Source of the DNA: Planctomycetia bacterium
GTDB lineage: Bacteria > Planctomycetota > Planctomycetia > Pirellulales > UBA7805
NCBI GenBank assembly: GCA_021413585.1
Contig: JAIOQB010000356.1
Span: forward strand, 1-53,516
Direction: 5' to 3'
DNA length: 53,516 nt
Each line of letters opens with the position of its first letter. Position 1 is the stretch's first letter. Below are positions 6,201-9,038 of this stretch, in pieces. A model generated the notes under the pieces. It ran no database searches. It saw nothing but the letters and a program-made list of their open reading frames with translations, and had not been told where the DNA came from. Position numbers and translations under genes: made by a program.

Positions 6201-6983
6201 ATGACAATGTCGTCGAACCAGCGAAGTTCCGCTGTTTATCCAAAGGGAAGGTTTACATTCCGATTATCTGGCATATTTGTCGCTACGTCTGTTATCGCTC
6301 TTTTTCTCGCTGTTTCCAACCAATGGAATGCAGGAGTCGGTATCCTCGCCGTATTGCTCACCCTTTCGGCAAGACGCCTATTTCAACGTAAAGCCCAAAC
6401 CACAAAAGCAATGACACGCTTGTGCATCTGTCTCGCAGTTATGGCCATTCTTGGCATCATCTTTAGTTGTGCTGGGTGGCCAATCGGGGTTTTCCAACTA
6501 GAGGGAGTTCTTTCCTACTATTGTGACGGCAAGCCCCTCGTTATCGACGACATTTGGGTTCACACTGTCATCGAGGGCAAACGCTCACGGTTCTGCATTC
6601 CTCCTATCGCGGCTGGTCGGTATGAAGGCCCTCCATTTAACGTCGGCCTCAAAGTGGTTGACTACGACAATCGACACGAATGCGAGTCAATGGAAATCAC
6701 ATCGCTCGTGCTGACGTGTGCAGGTCGCACGCATGTAATTGTGCAGAAGGGCAGTCATATTCAATCGTCATTCAGCACTTATGTTGACGGTGTTGCATCT
6801 GTCAAGTCCGATTGCCTAACCGACGTCGGCACATGGTTGTCAAAGAATAGTCAATCACCTGTCGAGATCGATGTAATCTTTGTCATTCACATGCGGCAAG
6901 GCACGATTAAAGGTACAACTCACGCGACCATGCGGCCGCAAGAAAGAAATGGCTGGAGTCTTGTAGCACCGCCAGATGCATGA
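6201..6983 (+). CDS. Hypothetical membrane protein, lower GC than flanks
   Basis: 260-aa ORF with 2-3 N-terminal hydrophobic segments; AT-richer sequence. Confidence 0.5.
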   Translation: MTMSSNQRSSAVYPKGRFTFRLSGIFVATSVIALFLAVSNQWNAGVGILAVLLTLSARRLFQRKAQTTKAMTRLCICLAVMAILGIIFSCAGWPIGVFQLEGVLSYYCDGKPLVIDDIWVHTVIEGKRSRFCIPPIAAGRYEGPPFNVGLKVVDYDNRHECESMEITSLVLTCAGRTHVIVQKGSHIQSSFSTYVDGVASVKSDCLTDVGTWLSKNSQSPVEIDVIFVIHMRQGTIKGTTHATMRPQERNGWSLVAPPDA

Positions 6984-7068: not shown

Positions 7069-7974
7069 CTATTCTCCCCTCAGCAGCCCAATCAAACTAT
7101 CCCCCAACGGCAGCCCTGTCCGCTCTTGAAACCCCAAGAACATCGGGCTCGGGTTGGCCTCTAAATAGATGTACTGGCCATCGGGCGTTCGCTTGAGATC
7201 GATGCCGGTCCAGACGAGTTCCAGCGCGGCGGCGATTTGCAGACACTGTTCGGCCACATCATCCGGAAGCGGCACGGGCACGATCGGCGCCGCCTGATCG
7301 TCGCGAAAGTCGATCGCGTCGGTTTTGATCTCGCACGCCAACACGCGCTGGCCGACGACGAACACCCGAATGTCGGCCCCGACGATCTGCTGCTGAATTG
7401 TCACCGGAGCCAACGCCAGGTTGGCCAGGTTTTCGTCGGTCAGATGGCTGGCCGTAATCCGCTTCGTGTGGGCACCTCCCTGCACCGGCTTGAAGATGCA
7501 ATGCGAGTGAGCGGCGACAAACTCGCGCACTTGCTCGGGATCGTTTGTCAGCAGCGTGGCGGGCACGGCCATGCCCAAGGCGGCCACGCGGGCAAGCTGA
7601 ACCGGCTTGGTCTGGTGGAGTTGAAACGCCCGCCAGCCGTTGACCCAGCGGGCGGGCAAGTCGATCAGCCACGATTCCAGCAGGCTGCGGGCGTCGTTGG
7701 TGGCGATGTAGCTCTGCTCGGCTTCAGGCAGGTTTTCCGTCCGCACGCCGTGATAATTCCGCCAATAAACGGCGGTGATTTCCGCAAAATCAATCTGCCG
7801 GCCATCGAGCAGCCGAATGCTGCCCGAGCCCCGCACCGCCCCCAAAGTGAGCGTCGTGCGACCGGGGAAGTCGCGTGTGTCGAACAGTTCGGCGTCGGCC
7901 CCTTCCGCGCAAAGTCGGTCGAATACATACGCGGCATGCTGGTCGAGTTGATCGCCGAGGATTATGATTGTCAT
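7069..7974 (-). CDS. ATP-grasp ligase, RimK/MvdC-MvdD (graspetide synthetase)-like
   Basis: KPVQLARVAALGMAVPATLLTND, IFKPVQGG, IQQQIVGADIRVFVVG, DFR, TGIDLKRTPDGQYIYLEANPSPMF. Confidence 0.85.
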   Translation of the reverse strand: MTIIILGDQLDQHAAYVFDRLCAEGADAELFDTRDFPGRTTLTLGAVRGSGSIRLLDGRQIDFAEITAVYWRNYHGVRTENLPEAEQSYIATNDARSLLESWLIDLPARWVNGWRAFQLHQTKPVQLARVAALGMAVPATLLTNDPEQVREFVAAHSHCIFKPVQGGAHTKRITASHLTDENLANLALAPVTIQQQIVGADIRVFVVGQRVLACEIKTDAIDFRDDQAAPIVPVPLPDDVAEQCLQIAAALELVWTGIDLKRTPDGQYIYLEANPSPMFLGFQERTGLPLGDSLIGLLRGE

Positions 7975-8078
7975 TGCGGCGGCAGTATGACTTGCGAATA
8001 TTCTGCTGGCGAAGAGTCGTCCCGAGGGGTGTAGTCCGTCATTTGGAATCTTACGAGTCCAACGCCAGGAGCGTTACC

Positions 8079-9038
8079 ATGCGACATCCCTTCGACGGCA
8101 TTATCATACCGGAAGAACGTGCGGCAGAAGACACTGGGTTGCCCAGCCCACTCCGCAGGGGCTTCCTGGCACTCAGCGGGATCCCCCGCCGGACGATGCT
8201 CGGCTGGTTCGGCGCGGTGGTCGCGGCCCCGTGGCTGATCGGCGGCCGGTTGTTCGCCGCGCCGAAGAAGGACGAAAAAGACTCCGACAACGCCGCCGCC
8301 ACCTCCACGCGGGCACTCTACTACATCATTCCCAAGGACAAGAAGAAGCTTCCTGCGGCGACGCAGAAAAAGCTGGAGCTGGACGGCGGCTACGTCACCG
8401 GCTGGGCCGCTCGCCAGCAATATGAAAAGACGCCCGGCTATTGGGCCTGGATCGACGACGCCACGGCCGACAAAGCCCGCCAGGACGGCGACGTTGAGAC
8501 GGTCGAAAAAATGACCGCCGCCGACATCAAGATCACCGGCCAGCCGCGTCCGCAGGGGCCGCAGCAGATGATGATCGAGTTGGCCCCCAACAGTTGGCGC
8601 ACCAAACCCAAGCACGGCACGTTCCAATCCGCCAACGACGTGGCCCGGCAGTGGGCAAAAGATTTCGCCAAGGAGAACTTCCAGTTCCGACCGACGGGCA
8701 ATGCCTCGATCCTGGTGGTGATGCCGCTGCCCACGACGGACGCCGTGATCGACCGGCTCAAGGAGAATCCGCAAGTCGTGGCGTTGCATTGGGCCGGCGC
8801 CGATTGGAAAACCTCCACTCAAGCACTGGGCGAAGAAGGGGGCGCCGTTACCAACCGTGCTGGCGAGCAGGGGGGCGGGGCGTCTACCCGCCGCGTGGGA
8901 GAAGAAGGGGGCCAACCCAGCACGCGGGCGGCGGGTGAAGAAGGAGGAGCCACCACGTACGCGTTGGGCGAAGAAGGTGCCGGCCGAGTTTCCACCAACG
9001 CCATCGGCGAAGAAGGTGGCGCAGGCGCGGGGCAGTAG
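8079..9038 (+). CDS. Tat-exported protein with six C-terminal (S/T/V)TxxxGE(E/Q)G repeats; putative substrate of the adjacent ATP-grasp ligase
   Basis: MRHPFDGII leader, twin-Arg motifs LRRGFL and PRRTML followed by a hydrophobic stretch, tail STQALGEE/VTNRAGEQ/STRRVGEE/STRAAGEE/TTYALGEE/STNAIGEE. Confidence 0.8.
   Translation: MRHPFDGIIIPEERAAEDTGLPSPLRRGFLALSGIPRRTMLGWFGAVVAAPWLIGGRLFAAPKKDEKDSDNAAATSTRALYYIIPKDKKKLPAATQKKLELDGGYVTGWAARQQYEKTPGYWAWIDDATADKARQDGDVETVEKMTAADIKITGQPRPQGPQQMMIELAPNSWRTKPKHGTFQSANDVARQWAKDFAKENFQFRPTGNASILVVMPLPTTDAVIDRLKENPQVVALHWAGADWKTSTQALGEEGGAVTNRAGEQGGGASTRRVGEEGGQPSTRAAGEEGGATTYALGEEGAGRVSTNAIGEEGGAGAGQ

Follow-up and report, generated by a model that had tools for sequence, protein, structure and literature searches.

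A two-gene, plesiocin-type graspetide locus from a planctomycete with a full-size, twin-arginine-bearing protein as candidate substrate

The plesiocin precursor PsnA2 (group 2a, Plesiocystis pacifica) is a short peptide. It carries four TTxxxxEE cores, each of which holds two nested Thr-Glu lactones in the product (bioRxiv 10.1101/2021.03.09.434688), and plesiocin is described as a multi-hairpin serine protease inhibitor whose potency increases with the number of cyclised motifs. In a second group 2 system, RcpA/RcpB/RcpC of Rheinheimera, TTxxxxEE and degenerate VTxxxxED-type cores share one precursor and one ATP-grasp enzyme, and the cluster's ABC transporter contains a C39 domain that cleaves off a leader ending in GG (PMC11626197). 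Export with leader removal by peptidase-containing ABC transporters (NHLM/PCAT) is reported as frequent in group 2 (Carter 2026, PMC13097080). Here we analyze a stretch of 53,516 nucleotides from a Planctomycetia bacterium (assembly GCA_021413585.1, contig JAIOQB010000356.1, positions 1 to 53,516; hereafter the window), in which an ATP-grasp ligase gene stands beside a gene for a 319-residue precursor protein. The locus is a real, widespread two-gene graspetide unit of unusual architecture, and on balance we favor reading it as a plesiocin-type (group 2) cassette that acts on a full-size protein destined for export.

Tandem TTxxxGEE cores are common to plesiocin and the present locus, and the plesiocin macrocyclase PsnB is the closest solved enzyme. 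The two differ in the precursor, which here is 319 residues long, contains a twin-arginine (RR) signal and a folded domain, has Ser at core position 1 in four of its six cores and begins with MRHPFDGII, compared with the LFIEDL leader of plesiocin. One of the cores, VTNRAGEQ, resembles the VTxxxxED variants of RcpA (PMC11626197), whereas the C39-bearing transporter of the Rcp cluster has no counterpart in the locus or in the source genome at E<=1e-5. The features of the locus are as follows.

7069..7974, minus strand: predicted ATP-grasp graspetide macrocyclase, PsnB-like, 301 residues (P0002); from NCBIfam, PDB and residue alignment
7975..8078, no strand: divergent intergenic region, 104 bp; read directly, with AGGAG at 8067-8071, seven bases 5' of the precursor ATG
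8079..9038, plus strand: precursor protein, 319 residues (P0001); from translation and relatives
8079..8105, plus strand: MRHPFDGII, candidate ligase-recognition motif, residues 1-9; from conservation
8154..8258, plus strand: twin-arginine-type signal, residues 26-60; from the conserved pattern and weak Tat-model matches in relatives
8301..8807, plus strand: tandem ferredoxin-like domain, residues 75-243; from predicted structure
8814..9014, plus strand: disordered, Gly-rich tail holding the six graspetide cores, which lie at 8814-8837, 8847-8870, 8883-8906, 8919-8942, 8952-8975 and 8991-9014

The sequence-only reading of the window had described, within 7069-9038, an ATP-grasp gene divergent from a 319-residue gene across ~105 bp. 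This arrangement is correct, with a 301-residue ligase gene at 7069-7974 on the minus strand, the 319-residue gene at 8079-9038 on the plus strand and a gap of 104 bp, and neither a peptidase nor an ABC exporter is encoded among the neighboring open reading frames (ORFs) of the pair, again as had been stated. The 319-residue frame opens with ATG at 8079 and ends at 9038. A longer, TTG-started frame from 7968 (356 residues) is not the gene; the homologues all start at M-x-HPF. Across the related loci the unit consists of two genes, with no further gene common to them.

The ligase had been labeled an MvdC/D-type ATP-grasp enzyme. Its assignment to the graspetide maturases stands, and by NCBIfam and PDB comparison it is nearer to PsnB than to MvdC or MvdD. 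Specifically, the top NCBIfam match is the model of ATP-grasp ribosomal peptide maturases, TIGR04187 (E 3.9e-51; 174 bits with a cut-off of 350), followed by MvdD (5e-29), MvdC (2e-24) and then the RimK family (3e-15). The closest solved structure is that of PsnB (7DRM; E 6.4e-45 over residues 2-290), ahead of 9bou (1e-20), MdnC (5e-17), then MdnB, CdnC and AMdnB, with RimK at 1.6e-4. Profiles, PDB comparison and tree agree in grouping the enzyme with graspetide maturases and PsnB, and not with RimK or glutathione synthetase.

The residues that serve catalysis and recognition in PsnB are largely retained. In that enzyme, Arg72 and Arg213 recognize the ring-forming Glu, a D-F-R loop is indispensable, the nucleotide is contacted by Lys172 and Thr180, and a hydrophobic pocket of Tyr171, Ile193, Leu196, Val201 and Phe203 takes Phe15 of the leader (bioRxiv 10.1101/2021.03.09.434688). 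Alignment places R72, R203, D222-F223-R224, K162 and T170 of the ligase at Arg72, Arg213, the DFR loop, Lys172 and Thr180, respectively, and F161, L183, L186, V191 and I193, in the same order, at the pocket positions; R72, K162, R203, D222 and R224 are invariant in 20/20 clade members. Arg101 and Arg192 of PsnB, described as retained in group 2a enzymes only (bioRxiv 10.1101/2021.03.09.434688), are replaced by N93 and N182. These two asparagines, together with the MRHPFDGII leader, exclude subgroup 2a and do not exclude group 2 chemistry. Judged by its sequence, the ligase is a plesiocin-kind graspetide macrocyclase outside subgroup 2a.

The six cores that had been listed for the C-terminal tail, joined by Gly-rich linkers, are all present: STQALGEE (residue 246), VTNRAGEQ (257), STRRVGEE (269), STRAAGEE (281), TTYALGEE (292) and STNAIGEE (305). 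Five are complete and one, VTNRAGEQ, is degenerate. The core motif [ST]TxxxGEE corresponds to the plesiocin TTxxxxEE with a Gly ahead of the Glu pair, and the family consensus is TTxALGEEGG, with GG after every core. Among 476 windows from 115 related precursors, anchored on GExGG alone, position 1 is T in 77% and S in 19%, position 2 is T in 99% and position 8 is E in 96%; positions 1, 2 and 8 are the ring-forming ones, and nucleophile and acid are 96-99% conserved. Statistics anchored in this manner indicate that the repeat is not a product of chance. Tandem Repeats Finder detected no DNA-level array across the cores, so that the repeats must be old and maintained at the protein level. In addition, the last core, STNAIGEE, contains AIGEE, a segment that in plesiocin occupies the PsnB active site, as does Gly36-Glu37-Glu38 (bioRxiv 10.1101/2021.03.09.434688). 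By homology, it is very probable that omega-esters are formed on the cores.

At the opposite end of the precursor, M1, H3, P4, F5 and I8 are invariant in 25/25 aligned relatives. A P-hydrophobic-hydrophobic signature in the first 30 residues has been described for graspetide leaders, and MRHPFDGII is compatible with it (Makarova et al. 2022, PMC8939145). Structure prediction of a complex between the ligase and precursor residues 1-40 gave weak support for binding, with a score of 0.48 and a best score of 0.00 among three controls. The mark applied was passed by 58/80 solved complexes and 2/110 mismatched pairs; at scores <=0.60, just 7 of the 80 solved complexes pass, plus both passing mismatches. 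The runs share at least 60% of contacts, with a partner pLDDT of at least 46 (predicted local distance difference test), and since PsnB-leader complexes have already been solved, likeness to them may account for the pass. Taken with its conservation, the M-x-HPF N-terminus is probably the ligase recognition motif.

Behind this motif, the precursors are modular and fall into four types. The first has plesiocin-type LFIExL leaders and occurs in some planctomycete families. The second combines M-x-HPF with an acidic LEAIDLDF...GG double-glycine leader, and all 21 cyanobacterial precursors so classified belong to it. The third consists of M-x-HPF with [ST]RR behind it, an uncharged run of 12 residues or more, then a basic residue and an end of the type A-x-A/Q; it accounts for 39/40 non-cyanobacterial precursors, and the fortieth (L095) shows the same signal pattern interrupted by a Lys. 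The fourth, found in 15/80 loci and in the 319-residue protein, adds a folded middle domain to the third. M-x-HPF is thus common to RR-signal and double-glycine precursors within one ligase clade, and the RR-signal module sits in exactly the place of the double-glycine leader of the cyanobacterial branch; in the 319-residue protein, an acidic linker separates MRHPFDGII from the RR pairs. By this comparison of sequences, the HPF motif travels with the ligase clade, and the segment behind it reads as an exchangeable export module. In the single-contig genome G156 (L025:2479-2960), MQHPFDG and the signal are encoded out of frame with the downstream cores.

Three samplings address the linkage of the two genes. 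In the first, 400 other genomes of the phylum were searched, with ligase relatives taken at E<=1e-15: the repeat occurs in 10/400 genomes and a ligase relative in 25/400, and in 9/10 repeat-bearing genomes the repeat and an ATP-grasp gene lie within ~2.5 kb on one contig. The second started from the ligase, with one genome per species; among the best 80 of 307 relatives' loci, an M..HPF ORF stands beside the ligase in 73 and cores only in two. The third started from the precursor in metagenome contigs (79 loci, 34 of them with at least 1.1 kb on each side) and found the ligase in 30/34 of the loci with such room. Where the metagenome precursor bears a domain, the ligase is present in 12/15 loci, always upstream and divergent as in the window, and the remaining three meet a contig edge on that side; of the domain-bearing loci, eight have room on both sides, and the ligase lies upstream and divergent in every one of them. 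The expectations that homologues of the repeat protein would be linked to this ATP-grasp clade, and that TxxxGEE cores would go together with the HPF N-terminus and with these ligases, are both borne out over several samplings. Every computational check named in the sequence-only reading turned out in favor of that reading.

A quick IQ-TREE analysis of 107 ligases, with SH-aLRT support alone and matches covering <230 residues left out, recovered the HPF ligases as one clade (98) beside a clade of LFIExL-paired ligases (99). Within the HPF clade, the cyanobacterial branch is supported at 100, with HPF and the LEAIDLDF..GG leader in 21/24 rows, and the RR-signal branch at 90, below 95 in this quick version of the tree. 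Toward the base of the RR branch, forms with the folded domain occur in scattered positions, implying six changes, at least two of them forced. Six loci bear titles naming Alphaproteobacteria, Alcaligenaceae, Rhizobium or Oligoflexales (L063, L068, L077, L085, L088 and L105). The ligases of the first five nest in the planctomycete RR-signal branch and that of L105, from Oligoflexales, stands at its base; these are either mis-binned contigs or cases of horizontal transfer.

The cyanobacterial HPF precursors (Microcoleus and others, L108-L132) are the nearest comparison for the leader. They share M-x-HPF and TTxALGEEGG cores with the present precursor, and their ligases form a sister branch with 43-48% identity; they differ in being ~100 residues long, with the acidic LEAIDLDF..GG leader and two or three cores, and in having no RR, hydrophobic stretch or folded domain. 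We found no description of these HPF/double-glycine precursors in the literature. A Cys-rich segment, IQCISAPCPGSEGGGG, is kept between both cores in them (for example L108:4485-4796, plus strand), suggesting that these precursors form a disulfide or are modified further. At 1.5-4 kb from the L132 locus lie genes for HlyD and for an ABC transporter.

Twin-arginine signal motifs had been proposed for the 319-residue protein. Two RR pairs are indeed present; R37R38 is invariant in 25/25 relatives, and conservation does not extend to R26R27. Assessed by inspection and simple patterns, the signal comprises R26R27, R37R38, an uncharged stretch T39-G56, R57 and then L-F-A|A. The pattern in relatives is [ST]RRxx[LF], with SRRxxL as consensus; the stretch that follows is weakly hydrophobic, its mean Kyte-Doolittle value being ~0.4 to 2.3, and a basic residue recurs shortly before the end of the signal, as in GRTASAQ and TRASQAQ. 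Models of twin-arginine translocation (Tat) signals are the only recurrent family matches of the precursors, all of them weak: Pfam TAT_signal in 7/25 relatives (best 0.0092), NCBIfam formate_TAT (TIGR02811) in 6/25 (best 0.0015) and NCBIfam TAT_signal_seq (TIGR01409) in 3/25 (best 0.012). The source genome encodes TatC (E 4.5e-56, above cut-off, contig C291). We judge Tat export, with removal of the signal by signal peptidase, to be somewhat the likelier fate of the precursor.

The search for precursor relatives retrieved 111 others, 52 of which span at least 94% of the 319-residue protein, and the protein itself has no Pfam or NCBIfam family match. AlphaFold2 assigned residues 81-240 a pLDDT of 88-97 and the tail <50; a domain-only model reached a pLDDT of 89.7 and a predicted template modeling score (pTM) of 0.83. 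The predicted fold of the middle domain comprises ~170 residues in two beta-alpha-beta-beta-alpha-beta units. The earlier suggestion that the cores sit on a folded protein is therefore upheld at the level of prediction, the middle domain being confidently modeled in both runs.

In its predicted fold, each half of this domain resembles the propeptides of subtilases. A VIA-align search of 48,161 chains returned subtilase prodomains at the top for both halves: residues 149-248 matched the PCSK9 prodomain (Z 7.8) and residues 77-145 matched pro-subtilisin E (Z 7.0, root-mean-square deviation 2.1, 60 aligned), with PAM protease (7.0), the BPN' prodomain (6.7), EpiP (6.4), POIA1 (6.0), the Tk-SP propeptide (5.9) and the cucumisin propeptide (5.2) further down, all Z-scores being <8, a range that according to the tool is common for unrelated folds. 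Among the known I9 propeptides compared (PCSK9 prodomain, pro-subtilisin E, POIA1), the shared beta-alpha-beta-beta-alpha-beta fold scored Z 6-7.8; the precursor differs from them in having no attached protease and in a tandem arrangement with no significant Foldseek match. Pfam Inhibitor_I9 (PF05922) matched 9/12 domain relatives at E<=1 (best 3e-5) and 5/25 full-length relatives, and did not match the 319-residue protein. Foldseek, run with the whole and the domain-only models, gave nothing at E<=0.001; all it returned were generic matches to tandem ferredoxin-like folds (ACT, RRM). Searched against 1.84 billion representatives, a domain profile reached 82 proteins and no recognizable subtilase, so that I9 homology is unproven. 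The profile of alignment A1 produced only spurious low matches among PDB sequences (a fimbrial subunit, alphaRep), and the ESM Atlas leads were all <0.9, a CspB prodomain cluster (0.88) among them. The source genome (93.7% complete) contains no I9 domain and no Peptidase_S8 at E<=1e-5, hence no obvious self target. The I9-like character of the domain, taken from models, is a fold-level likeness with weak sequence support.

This domain is one of several kinds of cargo. In a Phycisphaeraceae metagenome-assembled genome (L111:32-1165, minus strand), a 378-residue precursor with the MRHPFDGII leader and an RR signal carries three cores before, and more after, a 3keto-disac_hyd/DUF1080 domain (Pfam E 3.6e-47, residues 98-295). 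L055, L062, L075 and L085 encode a C-terminal helical domain of ~150 residues, and L078 and L102-L106 a central helical domain, with the final core at the extreme C-terminus. The placing of graspetide cores on full-size, signal-bearing proteins is a habit of the clade and not peculiar to this locus.

The tandem domain also occurs with a different tail. Among the 82 profile matches, a sister family (P0261-P0263, P0265, P0270, P0276, P0278 and P0291) of ~250 residues has an RR signal and shares the domain (hhalign 99.8%, E 6.8e-30); it has neither the HPF motif nor graspetide cores and ends, at the extreme C-terminus, in CPGCG[LM]G. This tail resembles CPACGMG, a C-terminal motif that ChrH-type MNIO enzymes are reported to modify in peptides bearing a signal peptide and in proteins >30 kDa (PMC13056109). 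The family was not found in the 400 genomes of the phylum. The tandem domain may serve as an exported carrier common to two unrelated chemistries of RiPPs (peptides made by ribosomes and modified after translation).

We propose the following course for the pair. The cytoplasmic ATP-grasp enzyme would bind MRHPFDGII of the 319-residue precursor, phosphorylate core Glu side chains at the expense of ATP and close them on Thr/Ser hydroxyls, leaving two nested omega-esters per [ST]TxxxGEE core. Up to 11 esters could be formed in the protein, because VTNRAGEQ can form only one. With the recognition motif lying in the n-region of the twin-arginine signal, the cross-linked, pre-folded protein would then be exported by Tat. 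Signal peptidase I would cut near A60|A61, removing signal and recognition motif together, and this single cut would make a leader protease or a peptidase-containing ABC exporter unnecessary. The mature product, of ~26 kDa, would consist of the tandem subtilase-propeptide-like domain and six bicyclic hairpins. Its function is the least certain part of this course. By analogy with plesiocin, we tentatively suggest that outside the cytoplasm it may act as a multivalent inhibitor against serine proteases of foreign origin; alternatively, it may protect the exported protein itself.

Besides the limits given above for the I9 likeness, the RR-branch support and the scatter of domain-bearing forms, several observations on enzyme, linkage and signal weigh against this proposal, in which ester formation, export and cleavage are all steps that we infer for this pair. 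The scores of the ligase lie under the curated NCBIfam cut-offs of all three graspetide maturase models, and RimK (E 2.2e-9) is its sole Pfam match above cut-off. Both results would fit an ATP-grasp enzyme that makes no esters here, adding glutamate in the manner of RimK or serving another substrate, its adjacency to the precursor gene being coincidental. This explanation is very improbable, given that PsnB stands 40 orders of magnitude ahead of RimK, that the PsnB residues for the ring-forming Glu are retained and that the linkage to TTxxxGEE proteins appears in two independent samplings. That linkage has gaps: the repeat gene and the ligase of G374 are on separate contigs, 5/80 ligase loci (two of them at a contig edge) have no recognizable precursor, and 4/34 metagenome loci with room have no ligase. 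The leader frame is broken in three independent loci (G156/L025, L054 and L064), by a real frameshift (decay or programmed) or by an assembly error. As for the signal, the 319-residue protein matches none of the Pfam or NCBIfam Tat models and its relatives match them weakly, its P-R-R-T-M-L deviates from S/T-R-R-x-F-L-K, and the conserved RR lies 36 residues from the N-terminus, long for a signal.

These properties of the signal leave room for the hydrophobic stretch to be a Sec signal or an uncleaved anchor, by which the protein would cross the membrane unfolded or stay tethered to it while the ligase acts before or during targeting or on a cytoplasmic tail; the RiPP-precursor signals documented so far are of Sec and lipoprotein type. 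We regard this as unlikely. The twin arginine is invariant, the A-x-A-type ends favor cleavage over anchoring, and a bicyclic, branched tail behind a pre-folded domain would suit Tat better than the narrow Sec channel. A basic residue near the end of a signal disfavors Sec, and one recurs just ahead of the cleavage-type end. About equally improbable is a RiPP of the ordinary kind whose leader is very long. In that case residues 1-245 would serve only as recognition element or scaffold, the tail would be cut off after cross-linking by an unlinked protease, one or several small plesiocin-like peptides would be released and exported by an unlinked transporter, and the RR stretch would be no export signal. 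In its favor, graspetide precursors of large size have been described (groups 15, 34, 35 and 41; Carter 2026, PMC13097080), the genes for graspetide leader removal often lie elsewhere (Makarova 2022, PMC8939145), a GG follows each core, and short relatives do without the folded domain. Against it, the module of RR, uncharged stretch, basic residue and A-x-A is retained in the 39/40 non-cyanobacterial precursors in replacement of the double-glycine leader, the folded domains vary (I9-like, DUF1080, helical) as fits cargo rather than a recognition element, and in the sister family the domain follows an RR signal and carries a different C-terminal tail. The source genome, moreover, has no Peptidase_C39 domain at E<=1e-5, and C39/PCAT and conserved neighbors are absent from nine non-cyanobacterial loci. 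In a comparison of 5 versus 5 genomes, a small sample of related genomes, Peptidase_C39 (E<=1e-5) occurs in 5/5 LFIExL genomes and 2/5 HPF-RR genomes, adjacent to the locus in neither set; the C39-negative HPF-RR genomes are the source genome and two single-contig genomes.

The surroundings of the pair contribute no further component. Homologues of its neighbors are absent from every related locus fetched, which places the ORF at 6201-6983 and the BON protein outside the system. This ORF (plus strand, 260 residues with hydrophobic stretches), immediately downstream of the ligase gene, matches no family and is without a homologue in the related loci; the 1-kb island that holds it has a G+C content of 49.5%, compared with 62-65% in the flanks. 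Among sequencing runs, none of RNA was listed as containing the locus, and the one DNA run listed may be the source sample itself. A consensus scan found no sigma-70-like promoter in the 104-bp gap, the consensus being uninformative for this kind of organism, and the terminator-like sites of the locus fall inside genes. In Singulisphaera acidiphila DSM 18658 (L058:2788-4666), a DDE transposase gene (DDE_Tnp_1) lies between a short precursor gene and the ligase gene, ~1.6 kb apart.

Two sets of described systems bear on how unusual this architecture is. Unusually long graspetide precursors are likewise known for corallotide (CorA) and for groups 15, 34, 35 and 41; motifs are repeated in groups 34 and 35, the latter consisting only of a synthetase and a long repetitive precursor (Carter et al. 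2026, PMC13097080). The main text of that study names no signal peptide, Planctomycetota or secretion, and the HPF family may already be catalogued among its graspetide groups. In bufferins, oxazolins and ChrH-type RiPP-lipoproteins, which are products of MNIO enzymes, a secretion signal replaces the leader and modification takes place in the cytoplasm before export, some of the substrates being >30 kDa (PMC12452194, PMC13056109); a signal peptide serving as RiPP leader is there termed highly unusual (PMC12452194). These systems differ from the present one in enzyme class, in their Cys chemistry and in their Sec or lipoprotein signals, and Tat and graspetides go unmentioned in the available text. 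In a literature search that most subscription journals lay outside, we found no paper on a graspetide precursor with a signal peptide or on a RiPP precursor with a twin-arginine signal; in the available text of papers that pair graspetides with signal peptides, the latter belong to accessory lipoproteins or proteases.

A broader claim, to which we lean slightly less than to its opposite, is that a large synthetase clade, with 307 relatives at one genome per species, modifies full-size folded proteins (I9-like, DUF1080, helical) that are exported via Tat, and is not a peptide-antibiotic pathway. On this view M-x-HPF was grafted onto the n-region of a twin-arginine signal; the proteins would receive ester-stapled hairpins in the cytoplasm, would use Tat because by then they are folded and branched, and would lose leader and signal through a single signal-peptidase cut. 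If the proposed course is true, this would be the first graspetide pathway in which Tat and signal peptidase replace the leader protease and ABC exporter, and a natural example of graspetide stapling on entire folded proteins. It would broaden the MNIO precedent for signal peptides by another enzyme class and another route of export, and the two genes would form a compact tool with which secreted proteins could be given hairpins that resist or inhibit proteases. It would also give a testable reason for the use of Tat, namely that the cargo is cross-linked and folded before export, and would explain why many ligase-precursor pairs stand alone in their genomes.

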